Notes under the pieces: generated by a model | Databases searched by the model: none | Seen by the model: the letters and a program-made list of their open reading frames with translations, nothing else | What the model was told of the DNA's origin: nothing | Origin: an uncultured delta proteobacterium | GTDB lineage: Bacteria > Myxococcota_A > Polyangia > Haliangiales > Haliangiaceae | Assembly: GCA_963848295.1 (NCBI GenBank) | Contig: CAWKDB010000010.1 | Span: forward strand, 2,976,001-3,040,000 | Direction of reading: 5' to 3' | DNA: 64,000 nt | Made by a program: the position numbers and the translations under genes | Shown here: piece by piece, positions 1,764 through 34,092 of the stretch | How the letters are laid out: each line of letters opens with the position of its first letter | How positions within the stretch are numbered: the stretch's first letter is position 1

Positions 1764-1862
1764 AAGGTGACAAAAGAGACAGCGTCCCCAACGAACCTTT
1801 GTGATTACCGACATCTACCGCCGGGGCGCGCTGAGCAAGTGGACAAAGAGACAGCGTCCCCA
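1764..1862 (-). repeat. Dispersed 28-bp repeat family, locus A (2 direct copies, period about 72 bp)
   Basis: Minus-strand copies of TGGGGACGCTGTCTCTTT(T)GTC.. at 1836-1862 and 1764-1790. Confidence 0.9.
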
Positions 1863-1864
1863 GC

Positions 1865-3525
1865 TCAGAGGTCGCGGAGCTCGCGCTTTAGGACCTTGCC
1901 GGTCGGGTTGCGCGGCAGCTCGGCGAGGAACGTGACCTTGCGCGGCCTCTTGTAGTCGGCGAGATCTTTGCGGCAGTAGTCGATCACGTCGTTGTCCGAG
2001 ACCTGTGCTCCCACGCGGCGCACGACGAACGCGTGCAAGGTTTCGCCCCACTCGGGGTCGGGCACACCGATCACCGCGGCTTCGAGGATGCCGGGATGGG
2101 TCTGCAAGTGATCCTCGATCTCGCGCGGGTAGATGTTCACGCCACCGGAGATCACCATGTCGTGTTTGCGCGACTCCAAGTAGTAGTAGCCGGCGTCGTC
2201 GATGCGGCCGAGATCGCCGACCGAGTAGAACCCATCCCGTTGCGCGTCGTTGGTCGCGCCGTCGTTGCCGTGGTACCCGGTCATCAGCGTCGCGTTGCGC
2301 GCGTACAGCTCGCCGACCTCGCCGGTGCGTACTTCGTGGCCCTTGTCGTCGAGCAAGCGGATGTCGTTGCCGCGCAGCGCCTTGCCGATCGTGCCCGGTC
2401 TCGTGAGGTGATCGCCGGGCCCGGCCATCGTGACCAAGCCGGTCTCGGTCGAACCGTAGAAGTTCCACAAGATCGGTCCGAACTGATCCATGAACCGGCG
2501 CGCCGCGTCGGTCGTCAACGGCGCCGCTCCGCTCATCACCCAGCGCAAGCTCGACGTATCGTACTTGCCGAGGGTCGTGGGCGGCAGGGCGCAGATCCGG
2601 ATCATCATCGTCGGCACCATCAGCGTGCACGTGATTTTCTCGCGCTCGATGATGTGTAACGCTTGTTCGGGATCGAAGTGGTTCTGCAGCACGACCGTCG
2701 CGCCGAGCGCGAGAGGATCGCGACGAACGCCGGCGCCGCGCTGTGATAGAGCGGGCACACCACGAGCTGGCGATCGTCGGCGCGCATCCCGCACTGATAG
2801 ATCATGTCGCCGACCGACTCGAATCCGGTGCGCTTCCAGCTGCGGTTCGCGCCTTTGGGTTTGCCGGTCGTGCCCGACGTATAGACGATCACGCCTCCGC
2901 CGTCGCCGCCGCGCACGCGTGGGGGAAGCTCAGGCGGTTGAGCAGCGAGCGCGCGGTCCCACTCGACGACGTCCGCGGCATCGGTCGGCACATCGCCGCC
3001 GCACGCGATCATCGGACCGCCTTTGCCGCCGGCCTGCGCGCGCGCCTCGCGCATCGTCGGCAAGAAGCCCGCCTGCACGATCGTCGCGTTCGGCTCGGAG
3101 TTGCCGAGGATGAACGCGATCTCGCCGGGCTTGAGCCGATAGCCGATCTGCACCGCGGTCGCGCCGAGCCGAGCGAGCGCTTGCTGTGCGAGCAAGAACT
3201 CGATGCCGTTCGGCAGCATGATCGCGACGCGACTGCCCGATCCCGCACCACGCGATGCGAGCGCATGCGCGAGGCGATTGACCGTCGCATCGAGCTCGCC
3301 CCAGGTCAGCCGACGCACGCCTTGTTCGCCGTACTCGACGATCGCTTCCTTGTCAGGATGCGCCGCCGCATGGAACATGATCGCGAGGTGAGGCCCGACC
3401 TTCGTCAGCCGGGCCGCCTTGATGAAGTGGGCCACGCCGGACGGCCGCACTGGCGCCGCGACCTTCGCCGACCTAAACACCTTCGCAAAGAACACTGCAC
3501 GGTCGAGTCGCACTTTGAGCTTCAC
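1865..3525 (-). pseudogene. AMP-binding acyl-CoA synthetase, split by one frameshift near 2712-2716 (true pseudogene or consensus error)
   Basis: ORF 2620-3525 has YTSGTTGKPKG and PLYHSA; ORF 1865-2794 has FYGSTE, GDLG, ISGGVNIYPREIE, LPRNPTGKV. The halves join at AIL/ALGATVV if one base is added. Confidence 0.85.
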
Positions 3526-3550
3526 GGCGACACCATACCTGACCGCGAAT

Positions 3551-3781
3551 TGGTGACGCTGTCTCTTTTGTCAACTTGCGTCGCTTGACGCTCGCAGTAA
3601 CCGCCCGGACTGCCTGGGTTTGTCTGGGGACGCTGTCTCTTTTGTCAACTTGTGGTCGCCGAGCCGCTCCTGGCGGAGCGCCGTTTTCAAGCGGGCGGGC
3701 TGATCGCTCGAGCGCGATACGTCCGCGTACGCGATCACTGCGGTCGGCTGGCAGCACAAGTAGACAAAAGGGACAGCGTCC
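3551..3781. repeat. Dispersed repeat locus B (2 direct + copies 74 bp apart, plus 1 inverted copy)
   Basis: TGGTGACGCTGTCTCTTTTGTCAACTTG at 3551, TGGGGACGC... at 3625, reverse copy at 3755-3781. Confidence 0.9.
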
Positions 3782-3793
3782 TGCGTCCGGGCC

Positions 3794-6700
3794 TCAACGA
3801 CCGCTGTTTTGAATCGCGTGCATCGCGCTGTCGTAGTGGACGTCGTGCGGCGGGTTGAGGTCGACGAACTTCTTGAAGGCGTCGAGCTCGGCGGCGTCGT
3901 GGCCGAGGCTGCGCTCGAGGTCGCCGAGCCGGTAGTAGGTGTCCATTAGCCAGTCGACCTTGACGCCGGTCTTGCGCTGCTGTGTTTCGGCGCCGCTCAC
4001 CGCGTCGGTCCACGCCTTCGCCGCAGCCGGCCCGTTGTTGGTGTCGTAGTAGACCTCGCCGAGGTGCTTGTACGCGTCGGGGCGCGGATCGATCGAGATC
4101 GCGGTCTTGAACCAATCGATCGCGGCGTCCTTGTTGTGCGGCCCGGGGATCGCCTGGTAGGCGAGGCCGAAGTTGTAGGCGACCTCCGCGTCGTGTTTGA
4201 GGTTCCATGCCTGTTTCAGCGGCGGGATCGCCTTCTCGAATTCTTGGCGCGCGACGTAGAGCCGGCCGAGCCCTGCGAACGGGTTGAACATCGTCGGCGG
4301 ATTGCTCGCGGCTTGATACGAGACGATCGCGAGGTCTTGGAACTTGGTATCGCCGGTCTTGACCGCGGTCGCTTCCGCGGCGCGGCCTAACGCGTCCAGA
4401 TACTGCGGATCGGGATCGATGTCCTTCGCCGCGATCAGCTCTTTGCGCGCCTCGTCGAGCTGGCCGGCGGCGAGCAAGCCCTCGCCCTTGAGGTAGTGAC
4501 CGGCGGCGTTGTCGGGGTCGGACGTGAGGATCGGATCGGCCTGCGCGGCGGCTTTCGCGATGTCGCCGGTGCGGGCGAAGAATCGGCCGGCGCGAATCCG
4601 CGCGGGAATCGGGACGGTTTTTGCCGCGACGAGCTGGTCGTACGCTTTCGCCGCATCGGCGTCTTTACCCGCGCTCTCCAGGCCGCGCGCGAGCTCGAGC
4701 GCGACGTCGGTGCGGTTCGGATCGATCGCGAGCGCGGCACGCAGCTGGTCGAGCGCGTCGTCGTGATGGCCTTGCGCTTCGAGCACCTTGCCGAGCTCGA
4801 GCTTCGGCTCGACGTCTTTGTCGAGCTCGAGCGACGCCTGGCGCAGGAACTTCTCGGCCTTTATGAGATCGCCGGTGGTGAAGTACGCGACGCCGAGCGA
4901 CAGCGCGCGCTGCGGATCATTCTGTGCTTTGTCCTCGAGCGTGGCGAGCAGACCTTGCGCCCGGTCGCGATAGCCTTGCGCCTTGCCGTCGTTCGCGGCG
5001 TCCGAGGCCTTGGCCATCGCGCCGAGCTTCTCGACCGCGGCCATCGTCGGCGCGAGATCCAAGTCGCCGGCGGCCTTCGCGCCGCGGACGAACGCTTCGA
5101 TCGCACCTGCGTCGTCGCCCTTGGCTTGCAGTAGTCGGCCCGTTACGAGCTCGAACTGCGCGCGTTGCAGCGGCGGCAGCTGACGCCCGTCGAGCGCTTT
5201 GAGCCGCGTGGCGGCGTCAGCTAGCTGGCCGCCATGGATGTCGAGATCGCAGAACACGAGCTGCGCTTGGACGTCATCGGGCGACTGCGTGATCGCCTTC
5301 GTGATCAGGTCGCGAGCGACTGAGGTCTTATTGTCGGCGAGCTCGACCTGCGCGAGCCCGGTGAGTGCCCCGACGTCCTGCGGGGTGATCGCGAGCGCGT
5401 TGTGGTAGTGACCGCGCGCGGCGTCGAGCTGACCGGCGGCCCTTTCGATGTCGCCGACGAGCGACCACGCGCGGGTGACCGCTCGGGGGTCGGCGCCCTT
5501 GATGTCCTTGCGGTTGAGGATCGCCATCAGCTCGGCATGGCGCTGCGCGGACTCGGCGGGAGGTGCGGCGGCGACCAAGCCCACCTGGGCACCGACGTGA
5601 TCCTTCTCGAGCTCGAGGACCGCGGCGAAATCGGCGTGTGCGCCGTCGAGGTCGGCTTGGATCAGCTTCGTCGTGCCGCGCGCGTACAGCGCGGCGACCT
5701 TGACGACCGGGCCGGCCGCGATCGCCTGATCGAACGCCTTGTTCGCGGCGACGAGGTCGCCCTTTCGCATCCGCGCCCAGCCGAGATAGAGCAGCAGGTA
5801 TGGATCCTTCGGGTTCGCCGCCAGCAGCTTCTGCAGCTTGACCAGCGCGGGATCGGCTTGTCCGGCGGCGAGGGCCGATAACACTTGCGCGCGATCGAGC
5901 TCCGGGCCGGTCACCCCATCCTCGAGCGCCTTCGCGATCATCTTCTTGCCGACCGCGATCCGCTGCGGGAGGTTGAGGCCGGTCTCGAGCGCCGCGGCGA
6001 GCGAACCCTCGGCGACGATGCCGAGCGCCTCGACGTTGCTATCGTCGAGCTCGAGCGCGTCGCGCGCGCTGTTGACCGCGCGTTGCCAGTGGTTCGCATC
6101 GGCTGCGAGCAAGGCTTCGTGCGCCGACTTCAGGTCGGTCGCGATCGCTTCGGTGCGCTGCCGAGCCGCGGCGTGGTGGCGGTAGAACATCCATCCGCCG
6201 GCACCGGCGACGACCACGCCGAGCGCGATCGTCGCGATCTTGCGCGAGCGTTGCGCGCGCCCGAGCTTTGCGCCGGCGGCGTCCTCGGCGGCCTTCTGCT
6301 TCGCGACCTTCTTCGGCGACTCCTTCGGCGCTTCGGGATGCGGCGCGTCGGCGAGCTCGAGCTGGAGATCCGCGCCCTTGTTCGCGCCGGCCAGCGGCGG
6401 TCCGATCCCGGCGTCGGACCTCGCAGCCGCGGACTTCGCCGCGGCGGAGCCGGGCTTCGGCGTCGTGTCGAACCGGATCGCCGGCTTCGACGGCGCCGAC
6501 AGGTCGAGGTCGCCGAACGAGTCGACCGGCGTCGGCACCGGGATCGCGGCACCGGGGGACGCGAGGCCGAGATCGAGCTCGGGTCCCGATTCTTGCGCGA
6601 GCTCGAGCGGCTGTCCCGCCGATGACGGGCCGAGATCGAAGTCGAGATCACCGGGCGCGCGCGGCATCGGTCCCGCGCCCGACAGATCGATCGCCGCTTC

Positions 6701-7777
6701 GTCGCCCTGCGCGGTCGCTGGCGGCAGGTCGTCGAAGAACGTGTTGGCGACTGCCGGCTTCGCGGCCGGCGGCGACAGGTCGTCGAAGAAGCCCTTCGGG
6801 GCGACGTCGGTGGTCGACCTTGTGGATGCCGGTTGCGGCAGGTCGTCGAAGAAGCCCTTCGGGGCGACGTCGGTGGTCGACTTTGTGGATGCCGGTTGTG
6901 GCAGGTCGTCGAAGAAACCCTTCGGCGCGGGCAGATCTTCGTTGCCACGACCCGGTCGCGCCGGTTGCGGCAGGTCGTCGAAGAAGCCTTTCGGCGCGAC
7001 ATCGGTCGTGCCGCGAGCGCCGCCGGTCAGGGCGGGTTGCGGCAAGTCGTCGAAGAAGCCTTTCGGCGCCGGCAAGTCGACCGAGCCGGCACCGGCTTTC
7101 CCTCCGCCGGCGACGGGTGTCGGGAGGTCGTCGAAGAAGCCTTTCGGCGACGGTAGATCGGCGTCCGCGGGCCGCTTTGGCGTCGGCAGATCGACGAGAT
7201 CGTCGTTGGGCTTTGCCGCCGGCGTTTGGCCCGGCGTCGCGGCGCGCTTCGGCGCCGGCAGATCCGAGATGCCAGCGACCGGCGGCTTGATCACCGGAAT
7301 ATTGGGGATGCCTTTGGCCGGCGTCGCGGTCCGCTTCGGCGCCGGCAGATCGGCGAGACCCGCCTTCGATCTCGACTCGCCGATCGGCGCGAGCAGATCG
7401 TCGACCTCCGCCATCCCCGGCTTGTCCTGCAGCCTCGCGCCTTTCGGTGCGGGCAGATCGGCGGCCGCGAGCGCGGACTTCGGCGCGGGCTTGGACTCCC
7501 CGGCGCCGCCGAGCGCGCTGGTCCGGCGCGGCGCGGGCAGGTCGGCGAGATCGATCACCGCGTCGCGCTTGGCGGGAACAGGCACAGGAATCGGCGGCGG
7601 GGGCGGACGCACTGGCGCGGGACCAACCGGCTTCGCGGGACCAACCGGCTTCACGCCGATCGGGATCGGGACTCGCGCCTTGCAGCTCGTGCAACTCGCG
7701 AACTTGGTCCCGGGCGGGACCTCGGCATCGGCGAAGCGGTTCAGCGTGCCGCACGCCGGGCAGGTCGCCTCGATCAT
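3794..7777 (-). CDS. Large zinc-ribbon / repeat-linker / single-TM / TPR protein
   Basis: MIEATCPACG..CTSC Zn ribbon, DLPAPK and GFFDDLP repeats, TM segment IATIALGVVVAGAGGWMFY, long TPR-like C-terminal region; start placed at ATG 7777. Confidence 0.85.
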   Translation of the reverse strand: MIEATCPACGTLNRFADAEVPPGTKFASCTSCKARVPIPIGVKPVGPAKPVGPAPVRPPPPPIPVPVPAKRDAVIDLADLPAPRRTSALGGAGESKPAPKSALAAADLPAPKGARLQDKPGMAEVDDLLAPIGESRSKAGLADLPAPKRTATPAKGIPNIPVIKPPVAGISDLPAPKRAATPGQTPAAKPNDDLVDLPTPKRPADADLPSPKGFFDDLPTPVAGGGKAGAGSVDLPAPKGFFDDLPQPALTGGARGTTDVAPKGFFDDLPQPARPGRGNEDLPAPKGFFDDLPQPASTKSTTDVAPKGFFDDLPQPASTRSTTDVAPKGFFDDLSPPAAKPAVANTFFDDLPPATAQGDEAAIDLSGAGPMPRAPGDLDFDLGPSSAGQPLELAQESGPELDLGLASPGAAIPVPTPVDSFGDLDLSAPSKPAIRFDTTPKPGSAAAKSAAARSDAGIGPPLAGANKGADLQLELADAPHPEAPKESPKKVAKQKAAEDAAGAKLGRAQRSRKIATIALGVVVAGAGGWMFYRHHAAARQRTEAIATDLKSAHEALLAADANHWQRAVNSARDALELDDSNVEALGIVAEGSLAAALETGLNLPQRIAVGKKMIAKALEDGVTGPELDRAQVLSALAAGQADPALVKLQKLLAANPKDPYLLLYLGWARMRKGDLVAANKAFDQAIAAGPVVKVAALYARGTTKLIQADLDGAHADFAAVLELEKDHVGAQVGLVAAAPPAESAQRHAELMAILNRKDIKGADPRAVTRAWSLVGDIERAAGQLDAARGHYHNALAITPQDVGALTGLAQVELADNKTSVARDLITKAITQSPDDVQAQLVFCDLDIHGGQLADAATRLKALDGRQLPPLQRAQFELVTGRLLQAKGDDAGAIEAFVRGAKAAGDLDLAPTMAAVEKLGAMAKASDAANDGKAQGYRDRAQGLLATLEDKAQNDPQRALSLGVAYFTTGDLIKAEKFLRQASLELDKDVEPKLELGKVLEAQGHHDDALDQLRAALAIDPNRTDVALELARGLESAGKDADAAKAYDQLVAAKTVPIPARIRAGRFFARTGDIAKAAAQADPILTSDPDNAAGHYLKGEGLLAAGQLDEARKELIAAKDIDPDPQYLDALGRAAEATAVKTGDTKFQDLAIVSYQAASNPPTMFNPFAGLGRLYVARQEFEKAIPPLKQAWNLKHDAEVAYNFGLAYQAIPGPHNKDAAIDWFKTAISIDPRPDAYKHLGEVYYDTNNGPAAAKAWTDAVSGAETQQRKTGVKVDWLMDTYYRLGDLERSLGHDAAELDAFKKFVDLNPPHDVHYDSAMHAIQNSGR

Positions 7778-7995
7778 CCGGCCACAATCATACCTCGGTC
7801 GACAGGGGATTGCCCCGTTCCGGGGGCCTCGTGAACGTGGGGCCCGACCCAAGGATTCGGCGGCCGTTTCGTTCCGAATTCCTGTTCTCGGTTCCCTGTG
7901 TTCCCGATCTACCGCGGCCGCGTCGCTCGCCCGCCTTGCAAGGCGCAACTCGCGAAGCCTCGGCTCCGTCGCCCAGGACCGGGCCTCGGCAGCAA

Positions 7996-8706
7996 TCAGC
8001 AGCCGTGCATGGAGCTGAACGGATCGCAGGGAACCCGGCCCGGAGCAGCGGGCTTGGCGACCGCCTTGCCGACCGGCCGGGGATCGAAAGGATCGATCGC
8101 GTTGCGCGGCTGCGTGCCGGGGTCGAACTGGTCGTCGTCGTCGTCGGCCGGCCGGCGGTTCTTGCGGCCCGGGCCGCGCTTGCTGCCGTTCTCGATCGCC
8201 TTGCGCAGCTGGTTCTCGATCTTGCGCTCGATCGCGGGCAGCACGATCAGGACGCGCGCGGTCTGGGCCGGAGTCAGGATCTTTCGCAGATCTGCGATCC
8301 GGCGATCTTCAACATCGCGAAATCCGCGCTGGTTCGCGACCGCGTCATCGATCGCCCGGTCGATCGCGCGCGGGTCGCCGCCGGTGCTGGTGTCGTTGAG
8401 CCTGCGTTGGATTTCGGCTCGCGCGACCAGCAAGCGGTCGATCTCGTCGTCGTACTTGGCGAGCAGCGGGAACAGTCGTGCCACGGCCGCATCGTCGAGA
8501 GAGACTTGCTCGGTCAGCTGATACGCGCGGAGCTCGCGCAGCCGCTTCTTGATCGCTTCGCGCCGATTCAGCGCCGGGCCGGGATTGCCGGGATGCGCGC
8601 CCGCAGGCGGCCCCCCGTTCGGCGGCGTGTTACCAGGCTGCGCCGCCGCGATTCGGCCGCCGAATCCGACTGCGAGCGCCAACGCGATGACACCGAGCCG
8701 GATCAC
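7996..8706 (-). CDS. Exported Spy/CpxP-like helical protein
   Basis: Signal peptide, LTPAQ motif near the helical domain end; GTG overlaps the anti-sigma stop. Confidence 0.65.
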   Translation of the reverse strand: MIRLGVIALALAVGFGGRIAAAQPGNTPPNGGPPAGAHPGNPGPALNRREAIKKRLRELRAYQLTEQVSLDDAAVARLFPLLAKYDDEIDRLLVARAEIQRRLNDTSTGGDPRAIDRAIDDAVANQRGFRDVEDRRIADLRKILTPAQTARVLIVLPAIERKIENQLRKAIENGSKRGPGRKNRRPADDDDDQFDPGTQPRNAIDPFDPRPVGKAVAKPAAPGRVPCDPFSSMHGC

Positions 8707-9278
8707 GTCTTCTTTCTCGCCAACCATTGTTCGGCGCGCGCGACCGCGGTGTCGTCGAGATCGTCGACCCAGCCGAGATCGGACGCCGGCAAGATGCCAT
8801 CGGTCGCCGCGGTGTCATCGGTATCGAACGCGGTGCGAGCATCATCGTCGAGGGCATCGAGTGCGCTATCGAGCTCGTCGTCATCGGCGTCGAGCACGTC
8901 GCCGTCGAGCCATACCGCATCGTCGTCGACCACCGGCGGGGCAACCGCAGGAGGCGGCGGCTTGACGACCTGGGTGTGCGGCGCCCGTGCAACCTCGCCC
9001 GTCTCCGACGGCTCGTGCGTCGTCGCCGGATGATGCAACCACAACGCGAGCGCCGCGGTCGCCACGCACGCGGTGCCGAGCGGCACGGCAAGCCACGCAA
9101 AGTGGCGGCGCCACCACGGCTGCGGAAGCTCGTCGCCGACCGCCTGCCGGATCGAGCGCTCGAGCGCCTGCCAATCCGGCTCTTCGCCGAGCGCCGGCAA
9201 CGCGCGCACCCGCTCGACCAGCGCGCGCTCGTCCGGCGTTAGCTCGGTATCGGTCTCGTTGTTCGTGCTCTGGCTCAT
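8703..9278 (-). CDS. Putative membrane anti-sigma factor
   Basis: Coupled downstream of the ECF sigma gene; single TM; acidic C-terminus. Confidence 0.65.
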   Translation of the reverse strand: MSQSTNNETDTELTPDERALVERVRALPALGEEPDWQALERSIRQAVGDELPQPWWRRHFAWLAVPLGTACVATAALALWLHHPATTHEPSETGEVARAPHTQVVKPPPPAVAPPVVDDDAVWLDGDVLDADDDELDSALDALDDDARTAFDTDDTAATDGILPASDLGWVDDLDDTAVARAEQWLARKKT

Positions 9279-9868
9279 TCGTCCGCCCCAGCTTGACCCA
9301 GGATGTCACGCAGGCGTTTAACCGCGTAGTGAAAGTTAACTTTGGCCGTGTTCTCCGAGCAATCGGCGAGCTCGGCAACCTCTTTGAACGCTAGGTCGTC
9401 GAACACGCGCAGCTCGAGCACGAGCTTTTGTTTCGGCGGCAGCTGAGCGATCGCGGCGCGCAACCGAGCGCTGTCTTGATCGCCCGAGATCTGCGCGGCA
9501 GCCATGCTGGGTGCGACGAGCGCATCGTCGGCGATCTCGGTCGGCTGCTCTCGGCGATGATCGCGCAACCACGACAGCGCGCAGTTGATCGCGATGCGAT
9601 ACAGCCAACTGCGGAGCGACGACGCGCCGCGAAACGCGGCCAAGCCCTTGTACGCGCGGACGAACGCCTGCTGCGCGACATCGGCGGCATCGGCGTCACT
9701 CCCGACGTAGCGCCGCGCGATCCGCCACACGCCCTTTTGATGTTTGCGGACGAGCTGATCGAACGCGGTGCGGTCACCCGCGCGAAACTGCACGGCGAGC
9801 TCGAGGTCGGGATCGTCGGCCGGATTCACGTGCGCGACGATCCCGTCGAGGGTGGCCAGGGCTTCCAC
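9275..9868 (-). CDS. ECF RNA polymerase sigma-70 factor
   Basis: Region 2 (DAADVAQQAF..SWLYRIAIN) and region 4 (LPPKQKLVLELR..FKEVAE..TAKVNFHYA). Confidence 0.92.
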   Translation of the reverse strand: MEALATLDGIVAHVNPADDPDLELAVQFRAGDRTAFDQLVRKHQKGVWRIARRYVGSDADAADVAQQAFVRAYKGLAAFRGASSLRSWLYRIAINCALSWLRDHRREQPTEIADDALVAPSMAAAQISGDQDSARLRAAIAQLPPKQKLVLELRVFDDLAFKEVAELADCSENTAKVNFHYAVKRLRDILGQAGADE

Positions 9869-9955
9869 GGTTGGTTTGACCCCGAGCTCGGTGCAGCCGT
9901 TAAACCCGTCGCCAAGCCCCCTCGATCATTGCTATTTCCTGACATAAGGTAGGGC

Positions 9956-11236
<1,281 letters not shown>

Positions 11237-11237
11237 C

Positions 11238-11363
11238 CGGGGACGGTGTTCGCTCTGTCAACCGGCCTACCCAGGGACGGTGTTCACTTTGACAACCTCG
11301 CGCTCGGACAAACCCGTTCAGTGATCGCCTCTTAGCTGGGGACGGTGTTCACTTTGACAACTT
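11238..11363 (+). repeat. Dispersed repeat locus C (3 copies of the variant GGGACGGTGTTCACTTTGACAAC)
   Basis: Copies near 11239, 11273 and 11338, starting right after the serS stop. Confidence 0.85.
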
Positions 11364-11396
11364 ACTCGGTCGGCGAAAGTTGTCCCTCGATCGCGC

Positions 11397-11431
11397 TTTA
11401 CAAGGCGTTTCGGATCCCTATACTGCCGCCC
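11397..11431 (+). promoter_or_regulatory. Sigma-70 stable-RNA-type promoter for the tRNA operon
   Basis: TTTACA-16 nt-TATACT followed by a GC-rich discriminator GCCGCCC, upstream of tRNA-Ser. Confidence 0.6.
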
Positions 11432-11448
11432 TGCCTCTAGGACCGCCT

Positions 11449-11532
<84 letters not shown>

Positions 11533-11620
11533 TAAGCTTGATAATCGAATAGTGTCACGCAAGTATCTTAAGCGGGCGTCGCGTCGGCGACCCACGCTAT
11601 GGTTTGGCACCGACTGCCGA

Positions 11621-11710
<90 letters not shown>

Positions 11711-11718
11711 CGCTGTGA

Positions 11719-11791
<73 letters not shown>

Positions 11792-11793
11792 CG

Positions 11794-12267
11794 ATGCCGC
11801 TCGATGATGATCAACGATGGATGACGGTCGCGCTTGAAGAAGCGCGAGCGGCTGCTGCGACCGGCGACGTGCCGGTCGGCGCGGTCATCGTCGCGAACGG
11901 CGCGATCATCGGTCGAGGGCGTAATCGCCGCGAGCTCGATCGCGATCCCACGGCTCACGCCGAGGTGGTCGCGCTCCGCGATGCGGCGCAGCAGCTAGGG
12001 CATTGGCGAGTCGAGGCGACCTTGGTCGTCACGCAAGAGCCGTGCTCGATGTGTGCGGGAGCGATCGTCAACGCCCGCATCAAACGATTGGTATTCGGTT
12101 GCACGAATCCCAAAGCCGGCGCGGTGACCACACTGTTTCAGCTGGTCACCGACCCTCGACTCAATCATCGCGTCGAGGTGGTCGGCGGAGTTCTCGCCGC
12201 CGAGTGTTCCGCGGAGCTCACGAGGTTCTTCACCGAGCTTCGCCGCGGACCGAGCTACGAGCCTTAG
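11794..12267 (+). CDS. tadA: tRNA adenosine(34) deaminase
   Basis: DVPVGAV, DPTAHAE, EPCSMCAGA, RLNHR motifs. Confidence 0.96.
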   Translation: MPLDDDQRWMTVALEEARAAAATGDVPVGAVIVANGAIIGRGRNRRELDRDPTAHAEVVALRDAAQQLGHWRVEATLVVTQEPCSMCAGAIVNARIKRLVFGCTNPKAGAVTTLFQLVTDPRLNHRVEVVGGVLAAECSAELTRFFTELRRGPSYEP

Positions 12268-12271
12268 TTCT

Positions 12272-12354
12272 GGAGGAGTGTCCGAGTGGCCGATGGTGTC
12301 TGATTCGAAATCAGATTTGCGCAAGCAACGGGGGTTCAAATCCCTCCTCCTCCG
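12272..12354 (+). tRNA. tRNA-Ser(CGA)
   Basis: GGAGGAG/CTCCTCC stem, TCTGA-TT-CGA-AA-TCAGA, long variable arm. Confidence 0.94.
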
Positions 12355-12521
12355 CAAAAATCCTGTTCCCTGTTTTCTGACCTCTGATTTCGCTCCCACG
12401 ACCGGGCTCTCCGTTTCGAGCTGACTTCCGATGTAGTCCCTCGGCCGCGCTCGTTCGAGCTGCGACTTCTGATTCTGCCCTCGGCGGTCTCGTTCGTTTC
12501 GAGCTGCGACTGCGATTCCAA

Positions 12522-12606
<85 letters not shown>

Positions 12607-12646
12607 CCGATGTCGTTGCGGGCTGTCGATGCTTGCGTGAGTTTTA

Positions 12647-12730
<84 letters not shown>

Positions 12731-12796
12731 CCTATCCAACGAGCGACGACCACGTAGTCGTCGCTCGTTACCTTTTTCGGGTTACGTTTACCGGGC

Positions 12797-13589: not shown

Positions 13590-15537
<1,948 letters not shown>

Positions 15538-15876: not shown

Positions 15877-16104
15877 GTCAACGTTGACGTTGACCTGAAC
15901 TTGAACTTGAACCCCACCGTCGACATGAACGTGATCGATCTTGTCTCGAACGCGGGTCGCGAACGTCGGCCATCGAGCGGGACATCGTCGAGCGGCGAGG
16001 TGCAGATCGTGGACGAGTACGTGCACGTGACACGTGCACGTGCACGTGCACGTTCGGAACAACGTCGAGGTCGAGGGTGGCGTTCAGGTTCACGTCAACG
16101 TCAA
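15877..16104. repeat. Intergenic element with imperfect hexamer-periodic inverted ends
   Basis: Left TTGACGTTGACCTGAACTTGAAC versus right GTTCAGGTTCACGTCAACGTCAA; internal (CACGTG)n run. Confidence 0.7.
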
Positions 16105-16119
16105 GGTTTGGGCTGAGCG

Positions 16120-20130: not shown

Positions 20131-20206
20131 GAGTCGGGGCGGCGCGGCTCGACACGCGCGCCGACATCACCACGGCACCGAGTCGAGTCGCCGGCCGCGG
20201 CACCCC

Positions 20207-20231
20207 AGTCGACAAAAGCGACAGCGTCACC
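20207..20231 (-). repeat. Dispersed repeat, single copy overlapping the selenoprotein stop codon
   Basis: Minus strand GGTGACGCTGTCGCTTTTGTCGACT; its TGA is the gene's stop. Confidence 0.8.
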
Positions 20232-21231
20232 CGAGCGCGGCGAGCGCGACGGTGATGCGCGAGAACACGCCGGCGGTACTCGCGGTCGCGCAGACATCGA
20301 ACAACGCCGCATCGGAGAAGCCGGTCGCGCGCAGCGCCGCGAAGCTCGCATCACCGAGCCGCCACGGTGCGAGCGTGACGAGCTCGGCGAGCGCACGCAG
20401 CGCGTCTTCGAGCGGGTTCGCGGTCAGATCGCCGGGCGGCGAGATCGAGCCATCGCCGAGCCAGGTCGCGACCCAGCGCGCGATCAGCGTGCGCTGCCGC
20501 CGGGTCAACGGCGCATCGCGTTCGAACATGTAGGTTCGCCATTCGGCGAGCGTCGCGAGCGTCGCGATCCGACTGGCGAGATCGAGGGCGGGCTTGCCGA
20601 CGACGAGGCGCGGCGCTGCGGCGAGCGCCGGCACCGTTGCATCGACCGCAGGCGGCGCGTGCAGGACCTGGTAGTCGAGCGAGACGCCGACCGCATCGGC
20701 GATTCGGTTCAGATGGCCGAACAACGAGCCGAGCGCGATGACTTGCAACACATCGTCGCCGCCGAGGCCGTCGCCGTGCCAGCGTTCGAGGTGCGCTCGC
20801 GACAGCTGCCACGGTGCGTCGCAGACGATCGCGGCGAGCTCTGCGATCGCGCGCAGCCGCGGCACCGGCCATGACCGTCCGGGCTCGCGCGGATCCGCGA
20901 TCACCGCGAGCGCAAGGGCGTCGTCACCGAGCGCGACACGCAGAAACTCTGCGTGACAGCTCGTTCAATAAAAACATTGATTCAAGCGCGAGGTCGTCGC
21001 GTTGACCAGCTCGCGCTCCGGCCACGACAGCGGCCCGGTGCCGTTCAACGTCGACGACGTCAGGAACACCTTCGGAATCAGCTCGGGATCGAGGCTGTGA
21101 GCGACCACGATGCCGGGTGCGCCGCCGTGTGCCGGTCGATACGTCGGCGGCAGCGGTCGCTGCAGCATGCGCTCGTAGATCTCGCGCAACTTCCCGGTCG
21201 ACTCGGGATGCGAGGTGGTCGCGAGCGCCAT
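20227..21231 (-). CDS. AhpD/carboxymuconolactone-decarboxylase-like selenoprotein (334 aa, Sec at codon 89)
   Basis: ORFs 20965-21234 and 20227-20904 are in the same frame and separated only by TGA 20967-20965; readthrough gives RELV..TTSRLNQCFY-U-TSCH, the AhpD CxxC-xxx-H motif. Confidence 0.88.
20927..20964 (-). promoter_or_regulatory. Candidate bacterial SECIS element
   Basis: Immediately 3' of the UGA: a-CGAGC-ugu-CACGCAG-AGUUU-CUGCGUG-ucgc-GCUCG, a two-stem hairpin with G early in the apical loop. Confidence 0.78.
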
Positions 21232-24012: not shown

Positions 24013-24426
24013 GTGTTCCGCCGAGACTGGCTGCAGCGTCTGATCGAGCAGATCGCGGAGTTCGTCGGCAAGGCGACGGGCTTTATCGACAAGTCCAAGT
24101 ACGAGTCGGCGCTCGAGACGGTCGCGCGCGGCTGGGCCGACGTGCTGGGCGTGCCCCGCGAGCTCGTCGATCGGGTCGATCCGCCGACCCTCGCCGAGCT
24201 GTTGCGCGAGCCGGCGAAGATGCGCGCCGGCGCCGAGCTGCTGACGGTCGAGGCGCGCGCGTACGCCGGTAAGGGCGATCCGCTCCACGCCGCGCTGTGC
24301 TACCGCCGCGCTTACGAGCTGTACCTCGAGGCGCGGGCGCTGGATCCGACCGACGGCGACGATGCCGCGCTGCTCGAGCTGTCGCGGTTCGTGCCACCGA
24401 GCGAGGTCCACGCGCGCTACCGCTGA
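24013..24426 (+). CDS. Hypothetical helical protein (DUF6483-like)
   Basis: MFRRDWLQRLIEQIAE N-terminus; fills the gap cleanly. Confidence 0.7.
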   Translation: MFRRDWLQRLIEQIAEFVGKATGFIDKSKYESALETVARGWADVLGVPRELVDRVDPPTLAELLREPAKMRAGAELLTVEARAYAGKGDPLHAALCYRRAYELYLEARALDPTDGDDAALLELSRFVPPSEVHARYR

Positions 24427-24448
24427 GTTTCGGCGTATAAAGCCCGCG

Positions 24449-28138: not shown

Positions 28139-28195
28139 GGTGAGTCCTCGGCGACCTACGCTGCATCGCGCGTGCCGCGAGCTCACGTACGCGCG

Positions 28196-29014: not shown

Positions 29015-29062
29015 CGAGCGCTCCTGTGGGTAGGTGGCGATCGAAGGCGCAGGGCGCAGGAA

Positions 29063-30298
<1,236 letters not shown>

Positions 30299-30340
30299 GG
30301 CCGGCAGTGTGACAAGCCGTCACACTCGAAGCAACTGAAA

Positions 30341-30606
30341 TGGTGACGCTGTCTCTTCTGTCAACTTGTAGATCCCGCCCTACCGGCCATCTAGCTGTCT
30401 TGATGAGAAGATTTTGGTGACGCTGTCTCTATTGTCAACTTGTGGAGAAGATTTTGGTGAGAAGATTTTGGTGACGCTGTCTCTATTGTCAACTTGTGGC
30501 GCGGTGCCATCGTTGTTTCGCGATATCGCGGGCACGCCACGATCAACCGCCTTCCCCGTCCGGAGCCGAGGATTGCGTCCGGTTGTCAAAGTGAACACCG
30601 TCCCCA
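30341..30606. repeat. Dispersed repeat locus D (3 direct + copies, periods 74 and 54 bp, plus 1 inverted variant copy)
   Basis: Copies at 30341, 30415 and 30469; 30581-30606 is the reverse complement of TGGGGACGGTGTTCACTTTGACAACC. Confidence 0.9.
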
Positions 30607-30607
30607 C

Positions 30608-31273
30608 TCAGTCCGGAAGGTCGACGCACCAGCGCAGCGCCGTCCGGCACTCGTCCCACGCCGCTTCATCCGGCACGAGGTACGGCGACTCGAGCGTGAC
30701 GACTTCGAGCCCGCGCTCGATCCCGTACTTGCAGCCGAACGAGCCCGGCGTCGGATAGCCCATGTCGGGCTCGGCGGGATAGCCGCACATCCCGGCCATC
30801 GCGCGCGCAAGCTCCTCACCGCAGCCATCCCAGTTGACCATGCGATAGGTCGAGTGGAGCGCGACCAGGCGATGCGCGGCGATGCGATCGATGAGCTCGA
30901 CGAGCGCGCGAGTCTCCGGCTGATCCTCGGCCGCGCCGCCGGGGTTGTAGCCGGGCCGGCGCTGCGTACCCCACGATGCGGTCGCGAAGTTGCGATTGAG
31001 ATCGACGTCGTTCGCGTTGTTGCGCGTGCCGGCGAGCACGCCATCGACGTTCACACACGGGATGATCCACGTATCGCGCCCGGGCGGACGCTCGACGAGG
31101 TCGTCGCATAGCCGTTCGAGCATCAGCTGAGTCACCGCCTCATCGCCGTGGATCGCCCCGAACAGCAGCGCGGGTGGGCGAGGCTTCGCGTAGCTCGGCG
31201 GCAGGAAGTGCACCGCTTCGATCGGTCGGCCGAGGACGGTCTTGCCGATCACGAGCTCGCGGCGATGATTCAC
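30608..31273 (-). CDS. mpaA: Murein peptide amidase A-like M14 zinc carboxypeptidase
   Basis: GAIHGDE, NVDG..RNNANDVDLNRNF, PET, LH, GYPTPGSFG, TLE. Confidence 0.85.
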   Translation of the reverse strand: MNHRRELVIGKTVLGRPIEAVHFLPPSYAKPRPPALLFGAIHGDEAVTQLMLERLCDDLVERPPGRDTWIIPCVNVDGVLAGTRNNANDVDLNRNFATASWGTQRRPGYNPGGAAEDQPETRALVELIDRIAAHRLVALHSTYRMVNWDGCGEELARAMAGMCGYPAEPDMGYPTPGSFGCKYGIERGLEVVTLESPYLVPDEAAWDECRTALRWCVDLPD

Positions 31274-32595
31274 TCGAGCTTCTTTCCAAACACGGTCGCG
31301 AGGCCGTAGCCGGTGAGCACGACGTACGTCGTCTCCTGAACCCAGCCGAGCAGCGACGTATACGGGCTCTTCGAGATCGCGTCGCCGATGCCACCCGCGA
31401 TGATGACGCCGGTGAGGTGAGTCAACGCCGGCCACACGATCAGCAAGAATGCGATGATCTTCGCCCCACCCGCGGTCGGCGATGGCATCCACGCGAGCAG
31501 CGCGAGCACCACGAGCACGAGGTTCGCGAAGTCCAAGATCGACGTGACCTTCGCCGAGCCCGGCGCGTCGATCAGCGCCTGGATCTTGCCGACGATCGGG
31601 AGCTCTCCACCCACGGGCACGAGCAACGGCACGAGCACGCACAGCACGCCGATCGTGACGAGGATGCGCGGCAACATCGACTCGCGATACTCGTGACGTA
31701 CGAGCAGACCGGGGATCAGCGTGATCACTGCGCCGAGCTCGACCAGCGTGGTCCAATCCGGGATGTCGCCCTGCACGATCGCGACGATCACCGGCACGAA
31801 GATACCGGCGAGCCCGAGCAACGCCGCGAGCACGCCGCGCGGCAACGGCTGCATCGGGATCGCGGCGATCACGATCCCGAGCAGGCCGACCGAGGCCATG
31901 AGCAGCATCGGCAGCTTCGCTAGGCCCTCGCCGTGGAGCAGCGTGTCCCAGTTAAAGCCGATCGGATCGGTGCTGGTCGGCGTCGCGAACGCGGCGAGCA
32001 TGAGCACGCCCCACACGAACATCACGAGCCGCAGCGAATCTTTCCACGGCTCGATCGGATAGCCGGCGCGCGCGGCGGTCTGCGAAGCGAGGTACGGCGG
32101 TACCGATGCGACGGGGATCGGACCCGCGGCAGGGATCGGCCCGATCTGATACGCGCCGGCGTTCGGCGGCGGTTGCGACGGATTTTGCGAGCGCTGATAG
32201 CTCTGCAGCGGCGCGGGTGCTGGTTGGGGCTGTCCACCTTGCACGAACACGGTGGCGGCGTGAGCGGGTGCGACCGGGACGTAATTCGGATGACCGGGCG
32301 GATAATTCGGCTGCGATCCACCCTGCGAAGCCGGAGCGATCGGCGCGGCACCGTAGCCGGGCGGCGGCTGCGAAGCGGGCTGCGAGCGCGGGGGCGAGTA
32401 CGGCGCGACCGCCGGTGCGTTCGCCGGCATCGGGCTGCCGCCGGCCTTCAGGGCGTCGACCATGTCGGTCGACGAGTACCCCATCACGGTCTTGGCCATC
32501 GCCGGCTGCGACGACGGCGGCTGCTTGGCGCCGCAGAACACGCAGTGCTGGGCGGCTTCCGGCAGGTCCTTCGTGCAGCTAGCGCATTTCTTCAA
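31270..32595 (-). CDS. Zinc-ribbon, Pro-rich, multi-TM hypothetical protein
   Basis: CASC..CVFC at the N-terminus; about 8 hydrophobic segments. Confidence 0.8.
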   Translation of the reverse strand: MKKCASCTKDLPEAAQHCVFCGAKQPPSSQPAMAKTVMGYSSTDMVDALKAGGSPMPANAPAVAPYSPPRSQPASQPPPGYGAAPIAPASQGGSQPNYPPGHPNYVPVAPAHAATVFVQGGQPQPAPAPLQSYQRSQNPSQPPPNAGAYQIGPIPAAGPIPVASVPPYLASQTAARAGYPIEPWKDSLRLVMFVWGVLMLAAFATPTSTDPIGFNWDTLLHGEGLAKLPMLLMASVGLLGIVIAAIPMQPLPRGVLAALLGLAGIFVPVIVAIVQGDIPDWTTLVELGAVITLIPGLLVRHEYRESMLPRILVTIGVLCVLVPLLVPVGGELPIVGKIQALIDAPGSAKVTSILDFANLVLVVLALLAWMPSPTAGGAKIIAFLLIVWPALTHLTGVIIAGGIGDAISKSPYTSLLGWVQETTYVVLTGYGLATVFGKKLE

Positions 32596-32671
32596 GTGTC
32601 CCCCACGAGAGTGGAGAATATACGGCGGACGACGCGTGCGCTGTCAAACGCGGCCGTGATGTACTGCCGAC

Positions 32672-33982
32672 ATGGTCAGCCTCGGGGACGTCAAGCGCAG
32701 CGCCGCGACGTTGTTCGCGCAGGGCCAACACCTCGCCGCCCTCCGGCTTTACGATGCACTGCTAGCGGTAGCGCCGCTCGACTTCGATGCGCGGATCCGG
32801 CTCGCCGACTGCGCCCTCGCCATGGGAGATGCTCGCGCCGCTGACATCTATCGCGCTACCGGTTGGTATTGCATCAAGGCCGGGCATCCGCTCGCCGCGC
32901 TCGTGTGCACGCGGGTGCTCGAGGCGCACGGCGCGGACGTCTCGGATCTGATCGCGTCGCTGGTCGTCACCTACGGGAGCGAGAGCGACATGCTCGGCAA
33001 GGTCGCTTCGCGCGTCGCCTTGCCGCCCGAAACGATCGCCGTCGCCGTGCCGGACGTTCGACTGGCGGCACCGCCCGATGCCGTCGCGACCGCGATCGCG
33101 CGGGCCGAGCATGCGACCGACGCGTTCCAGGACTACCCCGAGGCGCTGCACCCGATCCCGCTGTTATCCGCGATGTCGGAAGCGGCGTTTCGCCGCGTGC
33201 TCGGTACGATCTTGTTGCGCCGGTTGCCGGTGGGCGAATTCGTCGTGCGCGAAGGCGAGGCGGGGCAATCGTTCTTCTTCGTCGCGAGCGGCCAGCTCCG
33301 CGTGTTCGCGACCGACGGCCTTGGCCGCCACACCGAGCTCGCCCAGCTCGGCGAAGGCGCGGTGTTCGGTGAGATGGCGCTGCTCTCGGCGCAGCCGCGC
33401 ACCGCGAGCGTCGGCTGCTTGTCAGACGTCGATCTGTTCGAAGTCGGCAAGCAATCGCTCGCGACGCTCGCCGACGAGCTCGGCGCGGTCGCCGTCGCCT
33501 TGCACGGCTTCACGCGCGAGCGCCTGCTCGGGAATCTCATGGCCACCAGTCCACTGTTCAAGCCGTTCAACCGGATGCAACAACGCGATCTCCTACGCCG
33601 CTTCACGAGCCATGACGTGGCGCCGGGCACCGTCGTGATCAGCGAAGGCGAAGACGGCCGCGGCCTGTTCGTCGTGCTGTCCGGAGAGCTCGAAGTCTCG
33701 CGTCGCGCCTCCGATGCCACGACCGTACCGCTCGGCGCCCTCAAGACCGGCGACGTCTTCGGCGAGATGTCGCTGCTCCGCCACGGCAAGACCACCGCCA
33801 CCGTGGCCGCGCAACGCCCCGCGACCGTCCTGTTCCTGGCGCGCGAGTACGTCGACCGCATCGTCGCCGGCGTCCCCGAAATCAAAGCCTACCTCGAGGC
33901 ACTCGCCGAAGACCGCGACATCGACAACCAGCTAGCGCTCGGCGAAGACGAATCACCCGCTGACGAGCGAGTCCTCATCTGA
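32672..33982 (+). CDS. Protein with two cyclic-nucleotide-binding domains
   Basis: FGEMALL..PRTASV and FGEMSLL..TTATV; TPR-like N-terminus. Confidence 0.9.
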   Translation: MVSLGDVKRSAATLFAQGQHLAALRLYDALLAVAPLDFDARIRLADCALAMGDARAADIYRATGWYCIKAGHPLAALVCTRVLEAHGADVSDLIASLVVTYGSESDMLGKVASRVALPPETIAVAVPDVRLAAPPDAVATAIARAEHATDAFQDYPEALHPIPLLSAMSEAAFRRVLGTILLRRLPVGEFVVREGEAGQSFFFVASGQLRVFATDGLGRHTELAQLGEGAVFGEMALLSAQPRTASVGCLSDVDLFEVGKQSLATLADELGAVAVALHGFTRERLLGNLMATSPLFKPFNRMQQRDLLRRFTSHDVAPGTVVISEGEDGRGLFVVLSGELEVSRRASDATTVPLGALKTGDVFGEMSLLRHGKTTATVAAQRPATVLFLAREYVDRIVAGVPEIKAYLEALAEDRDIDNQLALGEDESPADERVLI

Positions 33983-33986
33983 GCGA

Positions 33987-34092
33987 TGGTGACGCTGTCT
34001 CTTTTGTCACCTTGTGGCGAAGCGCGATCCTTCGAACTCGCTGATTTCTAAGAAGGAACCATGGTGACGCTGTCTCTTTTGTCACCTTGTGG
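33987..34092 (+). repeat. Dispersed repeat locus E (2 identical direct copies, period 75 bp)
   Basis: TGGTGACGCTGTCTCTTTTGTCACCTTGTGG at 33987 and 34062. Confidence 0.92.

Follow-up and report, generated by a model that had tools for sequence, protein, structure and literature searches.

Direct-doublet repeats in a Haliangiaceae genome as the probable ends of two single-copy TIRYT-type transposase elements

The repeats dispersed through the genome of an uncultured soil-dwelling delta proteobacterium (Haliangiaceae) are, judged from sequence, almost certainly the ends of two elements, each with a single-copy Y1/HUH transposase of the TIRYT type, whose copies have been scattered. The class is that of the known TIRYT/TIRtron systems and is neither CRISPR nor classic REP. 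In the whole account, to which we assign a probability of roughly 0.7, the ends occur as direct doublets of fixed distance, likely carried by the enzymes to positions behind stop codons, and old copies are likely rewritten by these enzymes in place. The analysis started from a window of 64,000 nucleotides, the whole stretch of DNA that was analysed, in genome G000 (assembly 85% complete). The sister genome G101 (~88% identity) and a set of 138 genomes of the family were used for comparison.

Results

Repeats in the window

All 15 copies listed in the first-pass annotation were present within 0-3 bases of the positions given there, 11 of type A and 4 of type B (Table 1). A Markov-1 simulation of the window yielded 0.06 matches per run (100 runs, at most 3 mismatches). 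The direct periods of 72, 74, 74 and 75 bp reported earlier were correct, and the second subtype proved to be real (type B), only its own 65-bp period (11276 to 11341) having been overlooked.

Table 1. Repeats, spacers and cognate transposase loci (window positions; the last two rows give positions in G000)
Feature	Position	Strand	Remarks
Type A inner repeat	1764..1789	-	immediately upstream of translation-GTPase gene
Spacer, 72-bp doublet	1790..1835	-	
Type A outer repeat, variant minus one T	1836..1861	-	3 nt past acyl-CoA ligase gene stop
Type A outer repeat, 74-bp doublet	3552..3577	+	
Type A inner repeat, 74-bp doublet	3626..3651	+	
Degenerate type A copy	3758..3783	-	faces 3552/3626 doublet; 10 nt past TPR gene stop
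Extra degenerate type B copy	11239..11264	+	2 nt past serS stop
Type B outer repeat, 65-bp doublet	11273..11298	+	
Type B inner repeat	11338..11363	+	upstream of tRNA-Ser promoter region
Single type A copy, G variant at position 10	20206..20231	-	absent in G101
Type A outer repeat, 74-bp doublet	30342..30367	+	
Type A inner repeat, 74-bp doublet	30416..30441	+	
Third type A copy, local 54-bp duplication	30470..30495	+	absent in G101
Single type B copy	30580..30605	-	2 nt past stop of gene 30608-31273; absent in G101
Type A outer repeat, 75-bp doublet	33988..34013	+	5 nt past a stop codon
Spacer, 75-bp doublet	34014..34062	+	
Type A inner repeat, then ~50 nt tail	34063..34088	+	
Type A cognate transposase locus	C10:2679354-2680550		end periods 73/74 bp
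Type B cognate transposase locus	C10:1101287-1102400		end periods 65/65 bp

The gap between the acyl-CoA ligase gene and the translation-GTPase gene, which we take to be SelB-like, measures 109 bp in G000 and at most 47 bp in 19 of 24 resolvable relatives; the gap holding 33988-34088 measures 172 bp, and at most 23 bp in 22 of 27 relatives. In G101, a type B doublet occupies the junction equivalent to 1836..1861, a full A doublet lies on the same strand at the site of the degenerate copy 3758..3783, and the serS site (11239-11363) holds two copies only. The spacer of the type B doublet at this site is 78% identical to its counterpart in G101. The spacer 34014..34062 shares 81% identity with that of the same site in G101, while the repeat on each side of it has another base at position 10. 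Within the copy at 20206..20231, a TGA serves as the stop codon of the gene 20227-20865. Sequencing contigs covering 1000-12000 of the window contained no excision joint; they held only other doublets with different spacers and were uninformative.

Genome-wide spacing and spacer anchors

The genome-wide motif scan proposed with the first-pass annotation returned 225 copies (157 of type A, 68 of type B), with a spacing fixed by type. Direct neighbours were 73-75 bp apart in 56 of 71 cases for type A and 64-65 bp apart in 22 of 24 for type B, and 95 of the 118 neighbours within 400 bp were direct. The copies form 107 clusters; 68 are lone doublets and facing ends are a minority. Among the 138 family genomes the type A motif was found in three, with 135 copies in G000, 105 in G101 and 4 in G031.

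These family-specific periods support the earlier proposal of a length constraint on the spacer. About seven helical turns, as suggested then, suits type A; a rule of whole turns is not established, because type B has a period of 65 bp and relatives have periods of 56-66 bp, and the periods of 56-66, 74 and 112 bp are not whole turns. The length of the protein linker was not supported as a ruler and did not correlate with the period (rho -0.17, p 0.47).

The spacers, formerly described as unrelated, carry fixed anchors. Most type A doublets (52 of 57) have an A at +45, and this type shows additional AT-rich peaks spaced by about 10-11 bp; in type B the A stands at +42 (19 of 22 doublets). Moreover, two pairs of distant doublets have 27-30 of 30-32 spacer bases in common. 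A match to the IHF consensus in the spacer was also considered but appeared not to fit the anchor spacing. The dyad GGTGAC..GTCACC described for the repeat is confined to 10 of the 157 A copies, and a conserved dyad across the doublet was not supported. Folded as single-stranded DNA, a single A copy reaches about -2 kcal/mol and a B copy forms an imperfect hairpin of about -5 kcal/mol. Neither sequence logo contains a GTAG tag.

Insertion behind stop codons

Empty sites in relatives indicate that the doublets were inserted into short gaps between genes and brought their spacers with them. By our own gene model 209 of the 225 copies are intergenic. Outer ends abut stop codons in 63 of 130 cases, compared with 28 of 3000 random intergenic positions (0.9%) and 3 of 80 inner copies. 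Convergent genes enclose 47 of 106 clusters, against 304 of 3047 gaps overall, and 19 of the 81 clusters on contig C10 are no more than 100 kb away from dnaA (located by Pfam), where 3.3 were expected. G000 lacks an insertion at 16 of 71 syntenic sites, and at these 16 neither a clean target duplication nor a cut site was readable.

Two cassettes between facing doublets (L135 and L142) are common to G000 and G101. Mobilisation of cargo between facing doublets was considered and rejected, since stop-codon targeting alone explains their geometry.

Cognate transposases and their homologs

Both repeat types flank an intact gene of their own, coding for an HUH-Tyr-HTH protein of about 307 amino acids, in the order repeat-repeat-gene-repeat-repeat with inverted ends. 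Next to the gene, the doublets have the period that their family shows genome-wide. These are the repeat-bracketed Y1/HUH genes the first-pass annotation had advised looking for; its statement that the window contains no transposase holds for them, as they lie 296 kb and 1.87 Mb away. They were located by inspecting the DNA between facing repeats. A genome search with Pfam Y1_Tnp retrieved nine other Y1 genes, none adjoining repeats, and missed both cognate genes. All Pfam and NCBIfam scores of the two proteins fall under the curated cut-offs, including that of REP_Tyr_transpos (NCBIfam, E ~1e-10).

The A and B cognate genes are 52-54% identical. H59, H61, Y117, N121 and P122, which make up H-x-H and the Tyr117 motif Y-x-x-x-N-P, are invariant in all 31 aligned homologs. 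The top PDB match of the AlphaFold model (pLDDT 90.5) was TnpA-REP (4ER8), and Foldseek gave a further match to 3PVP, the DNA-binding domain of DnaA (E 0.02; TM 0.74 by target); a single-sequence structure model (pLDDT 49.8) was set aside. The C-terminal HTH was recognised as Bac_DnaA_C in 8 and as HTH_23 in 10 of the 31 members (E <= 0.01). Both transposases are single-copy and syntenic in G000 and G101, with amino acid identities of 77% and 82% versus 54-55% at four-fold sites of these genes; the genome-wide four-fold value is 75.5%.

The closest homolog, from G101, is 79% identical. Doublets with matched periods stood at both ends of 18 of 30 homolog loci, and an inverted match covering 17 or more of 20 bases was found at 63 of 72 loci scored without a shuffle control. 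Relatives reproduce the correspondence between gene and dispersed copies: in G091, 21 of 25 same-strand neighbours are 61 bp apart, the period of its transposase locus, and in G103, 19 of 25 are 58-60 bp apart, matching its own locus (~59). A plasmid search gave six distant matches of 21-35% identity. For the minor repeat families C and D no transposase was found in the 85% complete assembly of G000.

The repeats have very probably been spread by these enzymes, as far as genome comparison can tell. A REP/BIME-like mobile family served in trans by a Y1/HUH enzyme, one of the options initially offered, was right in outline; the repeats are TIRYT ends and not classic REPs. A match to a known IS or REP family, or random spacing, had been named as evidence against the initial reading. 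The spacing is non-random, and such a match exists in part, because the repeats would be the termini of elements of the TIRYT type, a class already described.

Changes between the sister genomes

At sites shared by G000 and G101 the repeats differ in concert and the spacers remain locus-specific, a pattern that speaks for in-place rewriting. Of 54 orthologous copies, 42 have a G at position 10 in G101 where G000 has a T. Among the 14 doublets with a spacer identity of at least 63%, 10 have changed in both repeats, and in four of the five doublets whose spacers are 80-81% identical both repeats have changed at position 10. In G000 the G variant accounts for 2 of 68 copies near dnaA versus 22 of 89 elsewhere; all four mixed T/G doublets carry the T in the outer copy. 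Of the 55 sites that are filled in G000 as well as in G101, 6 show a switch of repeat family, among them L079, where interior and flank are visibly alike.

Spacer identity between orthologous A doublets was below 0.63 in 14 of 28 pairings, the mean for non-orthologous pairs being 0.48 and the 95th percentile 0.61; this low-identity half fits a replacement of the whole unit equally well. Hypermutation of the spacers (A spacers 61% and B spacers 73% identical between the genomes, set beside four-fold-site values of 75.5% genome-wide and 54-55% in the transposase genes) was not supported, and the divergence fits unconstrained drift combined with some replacement. On this evidence, which comes from the single pair G000/G101, rewriting of the repeat alone is the course we moderately favour.

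Similarity of protein domains and repeat halves

Among 37 dereplicated homologs, similarity of the catalytic domain followed that of the 5' half of the repeat (partial r 0.46, p 0.002) and not the 3' half (-0.09), and similarity of the HTH followed the 3' half (0.28, p 0.005) and not the 5' half (-0.22). In a wider set of 53 the split was weaker (catalytic domain 0.36 and 0.14, HTH -0.05 and 0.18, for the 5' and 3' half, respectively). Given that these are Mantel-type tests on related sequences, they tip the balance slightly towards a bipartite recognition of the repeat.

Discussion

Alternative explanations

The differences between the sister genomes might also result from turnover, in which the same transposases move the doublet only as a whole, old copies are lost and reinsertion occurs at the preferred sites behind stops. 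Turnover of this kind, also proposed for REPs after the 'orthoswitch' in the accessible part of PMC3686654, would agree with the strong target preference, the entire spacers common to distant loci, the many orthologous A spacers that appear unrelated and the syntenic sites empty in G000. We nevertheless regard it as unlikely, in view of the repeats that changed jointly around well-preserved spacers, the unlike partners within each mixed doublet and the retained interior and flank of L079.

Retention of the doublets by the host as functional sites, either 3'-end mRNA elements or HTH anchors of the origin region, would shift the weight to selection and recombination and leave the nuclease a minor part. 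The intergenic position, the preference for convergent genes, the accumulation near dnaA and the conserved, syntenic single-copy transposases speak in its favour. The invariant catalytic residues do not, nor do the 76 of 138 family genomes that gave no protein match at E 1e-15 and the same gaps standing empty in most relatives; as RNA hairpins, the doublets fold no better than spacer-shuffled controls (mean z ~0.1-0.2). As the principal explanation it appears improbable, yet a host function can coexist with enzyme-driven spread and rewriting as the reason why the system is retained. The repeat-spacer-repeat layout, constant spacer length and low spacer similarity had further suggested mini CRISPR-like arrays with acquired foreign or self sequence transcribed as guides. 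This reading is largely refuted and hardly credible: G000 (85% complete) contains no cas1, no repeat has an Rfam match, and the only stretch searched against phages (window 30320-30620) gave no match. Compared with the genome, 80 spacers matched only other doublets or chance 16-21-mers. The spacers are inherited at orthologous sites and bear anchor bases, and transposase loci terminate in these repeats.

Proposed mechanism

For the spread and rewriting of the ends we infer the following mechanism from sequence comparison. The enzyme would read the ~26-bp repeat in two parts, the catalytic domain contacting the 5' GGGAC half and the HTH the 3' half. The substrate is probably double-stranded DNA, because type A forms no good hairpin. 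An oligomer might grip the two repeats and use the spacer as a ruler, together with a few anchor bases. Nicking close to the repeats may then be followed by strand transfer, by which either the whole end would be copied to a new site or the short repeat alone exchanged between copies. More speculative, and doubtful at present, is the idea that a domesticated HUH nuclease joined to a DnaA-like domain acts as a site-specific rewriter. Such an enzyme would use twin sites and two separately evolving domains, swap only the ~25-bp repeat and keep the intervening DNA, and more than 100 sites around the origin would be updated in step, even across families.

G000 offers two enzyme-repeat pairs whose rulers differ (74 and 65 bp), sites that occur naturally both empty and filled, a sequence sweep that is partly complete, and homologs by the dozen that have co-diverged. 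It thereby supplies substrates and controls for testing recognition, spacing and replacement versus reinsertion, and would make a little-studied repeat class testable in the laboratory.

Comparison with known systems

IS200/IS605 elements are multicopy and have dissimilar subterminal hairpin ends. Their TnpA proteins (IS608, ISDra2) share the catalytic fold with the present enzymes, whose genes differ in being single-copy, syntenic in G000 and G101 and bounded by inverted doublet ends. The ends of the IS21 family, Mu and Tn7 carry several direct repeats bound by DDE transposases. Two direct repeats per end at a set distance are a shared trait, but no DDE transposase is linked to the repeats here. 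MITEs lack coding capacity and combine inverted ends with a duplicated target; of the 107 clusters here a minority has facing ends and 68 are lone doublets, and the 16 empty sites gave no clean duplication.

The closest systems are the TIRtrons/TIRYT (Di Nocera et al. 2013, PMC3733652), TnpA-Y1 subclass 2.1, subgroup 2.1.2 (Quentin et al. 2018, PMC6006769) and RAYT Group 1 (Bertels et al. 2017, PMC5581495). Common features are a Y1/HUH protein with Y---NP and a C-terminal DnaA-like HTH, terminal inverted repeats opening with a sequence like GGGG-W-S and unrelated to GTAG REPs, and a low gene copy number (two in G000) with gene-specific dispersed repeat families. The motif GGGGWSAS is reported, in the text available, for most TIRs but not all; the A and B repeats agree at 7 of 8 positions, and the homolog ends L019, L028 and L041 match in full. 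As far as these sources extend, the present ends differ by forming direct doublets whose period is fixed for each family and whose spacers carry anchors, and the 157 and 68 copies contrast with a mean of 12 in RAYT Group 1 (PMC5581495). 'Dimeric' TIRs, possibly comparable doublets, are listed in Figure 9 of PMC3733652. In the literature searched, only two papers named the HTH-bearing TIRYT subclass, and we found no description of direct-doublet ends with one period at the gene and genome-wide (74 and 65, and 61 and 59 in relatives), fixed A/AT spacer anchors in TIRYT-type repeats, stop-codon targeting, dnaA clustering or in-place change of TIR families, or the split of catalytic/5' half and HTH/3' half similarity; nor did we find biochemistry of subclass 2.1 TIRYT on binding or cleavage of the repeat.

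REPINs and REP-BIME systems of RAYT Groups 2 and 3 (PMC3116915, PMC8266576, PMC3686654) likewise combine a domesticated single-copy Y1 enzyme with cognate intergenic repeats and have the doublet as unit. According to the accessible text, they also have spacers of constant length (71 and 110 bp in P. fluorescens) whose sequence is weakly conserved, and different repeats at syntenic genes (orthoswitch). As described there, REPIN doublets form hairpins, are GTAG-tagged and are inverted in 93% of cases, whereas 95 of 118 neighbours are direct here, GTAG is absent, type A is almost without a hairpin and the enzyme carries an HTH in addition. How RAYT repeats spread is called an open question in the available parts of PMC8266576 and PMC3686654. 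After the orthoswitch old copies decay, on the account accessible in PMC3686654, whereas here old sites bear the new variant. If the rewriting is true, it would alter the current picture of old repeats merely decaying after a shift in specificity, and would point to an enzyme for the modular exchange of short sequences.

Repeat families and spacers

All 15 repeat copies reported for the window by the first-pass annotation were recovered, at a chance expectation of 0.06, and fell into two families of ~26 bp, 11 copies being type A and four type B. A motif scan of the source assembly (7.78 Mb, 68% GC, 85% complete) with at most 3 mismatches gave 231 matches; removal of six type B matches without flanking bases left 157 type A and 68 type B repeats. 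The conserved spacing claimed from the window extended to the whole genome. Among neighbours at most 400 bp apart, direct A-A pairs had a period of 73-75 bp in 56 of 71 cases, and direct B-B pairs one of 64-65 bp in 22 of 24; a further 23 pairs faced each other at variable distances.

The spacers of these doublets had been described as unrelated to each other, which proved incorrect. Fixed anchors are present. In type A spacers, A stands at +45 in 52 of 57, and AT-rich peaks follow around +56 and +66. Type B spacers have A at +42 (19 of 22) and, counted back from the inner repeat, AT at -19/-18 and a TTA spanning -8 to -6. Similar anchors, 28 and 17-19 bases ahead of the inner repeat, turn up across 28 ends of homologous loci. 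A spacer search returned matches only to other spacers.

Two minor families share the build of A and B, namely C (mostly facing pairs) and D (direct pairs, 66 bp); no transposase for either was found in the 85% complete assembly. Another dispersed element is marked by an AT-rich 16-mer that is self-complementary and has 48 occurrences when both strands are counted.

Coordinates of features in the source genome (C10, C2, contigs; window, positions in the 64,000-nt stretch)
Feature	Position	Remarks
Transposase gene, type B	C10:1101402-1102325	307-aa product; between B doublets, periods 65 and 65 bp
Transposase gene, type A	C10:2679.5-2680.4 kb	~306-aa match, 316 aa to stop; A doublets on both sides, periods 73 and 74 bp
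Y1 gene L009	C10:3040575-3040733	575 bp beyond window end; apparently truncated copy
Family C/D example	C10:4827302-4827376
Family C/D example	C10:2826318-2826379
Family C/D example	C10:4577125-4577191
Family C/D example	C10:689053-689119
Relative of AT-rich 16-mer	C2:1339338	type B repeat in sister genome
dnaA	C10:2945059
Skew minimum	C10:2956436
Acyl-CoA ligase gene	window 1865-3525	broken into two frames around 2700 (assembly error or genuine frameshift); N- and C-terminal halves give separate matches
serS, four tRNA-Ser genes, tRNA-Arg(ACG), tadA, small SRP RNA	window 9956-12736	serS first
dnaX tandem repeat	window 14895-15074	45 nt, four near-perfect copies
Hexamer-like repeat, inverted pairs	window 15880-16108 and 56850-57376	family distinct from A/B
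Ser/Thr kinase paralogs	window 50180-56812	two in tandem, 3273 bp apart, 75-81% identical over parts

Cognate transposases

The proposed check for a repeat-flanked gene was successful, albeit outside the window, where two Y1/HUH genes lie between facing repeats, each with its own type; the right-hand outer copy at the B locus is degenerate. The two proteins are 52-54% identical, and tblastn revealed no third gene copy in the source genome. Both carry H-x-H and Y-x-x-x-N-P, which are invariant across 31 homologs, and both match NCBIfam REP_Tyr_transpos with scores below the cut-off. HTH matches in protein A were weak and included Bac_DnaA_C. An alignment-based structure model (pLDDT 90.5) matched E. 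coli TnpA-REP best and IS200/IS605 TnpA next, and also the DnaA DNA-binding domain.

A Pfam Y1_Tnp search returned nine Y1 genes unrelated to this pair, none adjoining A or B repeats. These nine (L001-L009) form a related group, and several have a conserved upstream element in common.

Genomic placement

Gene calls came from a simple codon-model caller (6285 genes). Outward 5' ends were positioned -2 to +8 nt from a same-strand stop codon in 63 of 130 cases. Stop codons of the opposite strand gave none, and the corresponding figures were 28 of 3000 for random positions between genes and 3 of 80 for inner copies. Convergent-gene gaps held 47 of 106 repeat clusters against a background of 304 of 3047 gaps, and 19 of the 81 clusters on C10 were located within 100 kb of dnaA (3.3 expected). 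The intergenic gap at window 33988 measures 172 bp, versus at most 23 bp in 22 of 27 relatives (including the unpublished G038), and that at window 1764 measures 109 bp, versus at most 47 bp in 19 of 24. Since these gaps are short in most relatives, doublet and spacer together are inserted DNA.

In the sister genome G101, small extra genes or inserts directly adjoin shared doublets at window 33983 and at G101 L042, L092 and L112. Doublet edges may be hotspots of gene gain or loss.

Homologous loci in the family

Transposase homologs at E 1e-15 occurred in 62 of 138 family genomes, counting the source genome and the unpublished G037. Among the best 30 loci, 18 were bounded on either side by doublets whose periods agree, at 56, 60-62, 65, 73-74 or 112-115 bp, the repeat sequence differing from locus to locus; at the other 12, repeats were single or the inner copy had decayed. 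In a wider, overlapping set of 80 loci (75 entered, five partial ones excluded, 72 scored), inverted repeats matched at at least 17 of 20 bases at 63 of 72 loci, and direct pairs of 50-80 bp stood at both ends of 21 of 72, one of these 21 being unmatched. Single repeats predominate at more distant homologs. The A motif was present in 3 of 138 genomes and abundant only in the source and sister genomes. Two relatives have motifs of their own, recurring at 61 bp in G091 (21 of 25 same-strand neighbours) and at 58-60 bp in G103 (19 of 25), in each case the period at a transposase locus of that genome.

Many homologous loci (L016, L017, L020, L023, L030-L032, L039 and others) occupy the same chromosomal place with differing repeat sequences, between what we take to be a kinase-like and a CoA-transferase-like gene. 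They resemble the orthoswitches of RAYTs, for which decay of old copies is described in PMC3686654. At most doublet loci among L012-L041 the inner repeat lies ~50-62 nt ahead of the transposase start codon. It often contains a hexamer resembling a -35 box, with a short conserved motif after it, an arrangement suggestive of autoregulation.

Repeat differences between sister genomes

G101 DNA was compared around most of its listed repeat copies. Of 84 sites, 49 carried the same type in the source genome, six another type and 16 were empty, and 13 lacked a syntenic pair. Mean spacer identity was 0.61 for orthologous type A spacers (28 pairings) versus 0.48 for non-orthologous ones, and 0.73 (11 pairings) versus 0.45 for type B. 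At position 10 of 54 orthologous A repeats, G was found in 53 copies of G101 and T in 43 of the source genome, where the G variant is kept mainly away from dnaA (2 of 68 near, 22 of 89 elsewhere, p 2e-4) and mixed doublets have T in the outer copy (4 of 4). Fourteen doublets had spacers at least 0.63 identical, and 10 of these 14 differed in both repeats; at the junction of window 1764, the source genome has type A where G101 has type B. Because re-insertion of a whole unit cannot keep a locus-specific spacer, at least some repeats changed in place. However, many A spacers look replaced, and the evidence stems from one genome pair, with the direction of change unrooted. The agent would be the transposase or host recombination. 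Judging by its title, a 1988 review reportedly proposed gene conversion for REPs; the accessible text of bioRxiv 10.1101/2021.07.10.451892 adds nothing on conversion.

Family C occupies source-genome sites where G101 carries type A or B.

Recognition and proposed mechanism

Pairwise across 37 dereplicated homologs, similarity in the catalytic domain went with similarity in the repeat's 5' half (partial r 0.46, p 0.002), and HTH identity with that in the 3' half (partial r 0.28, p 0.005); this set gave no positive cross-signal with the opposite halves. The split was weaker among 53 homologs. As label-permutation tests on related sequences, these correlations are no more than suggestive. The period could not be predicted from the length of the linker. 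PMC8266576 describes the related TnpA-REP enzymes as nicking single-stranded DNA and as transferring strands. The comparisons demonstrate that each enzyme is paired with its own repeat, that the ends are doublets of fixed period, that insertion takes place behind stop codons and that repeats change in concert. Beyond this, the enzyme would recognise the repeat in two parts, a protein-DNA complex would set the ruler, half-elements would spread and the repeat alone would be exchanged.

Comparison with known systems

PMC3733652 defines TIRYT genes, TIRtrons and the GGGGWSAS motif and mentions dimers and clusters, and PMC6006769 places TIRYT in subclass 2.1, with HTH domains. Likewise, the flanking 16-mer count of RAYT Group 1 is given as 12 on average (PMC5581495), and REPIN doublets as inverted, at 71 and 110 bp, with a few tandem arrays (PMC3116915). 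The literature searched, which covered few subscription journals, held no account of TIRYT ends built as direct doublets with a fixed period; Figure 9 or non-text supplements of PMC3733652 may show direct dimers. The REP-like mobile family considered in the first-pass annotation was apt as to function, as repeats and enzymes of the source genome work like RAYT-REPIN systems, but the affiliation is with TIRtrons: all defining features that could be tested agree; GGGGWSAS is matched at 7 of 8 positions. Within this known class, two things set the A/B system apart: the ruler-like spacing of its doublets and the signs that repeats were rewritten in place.
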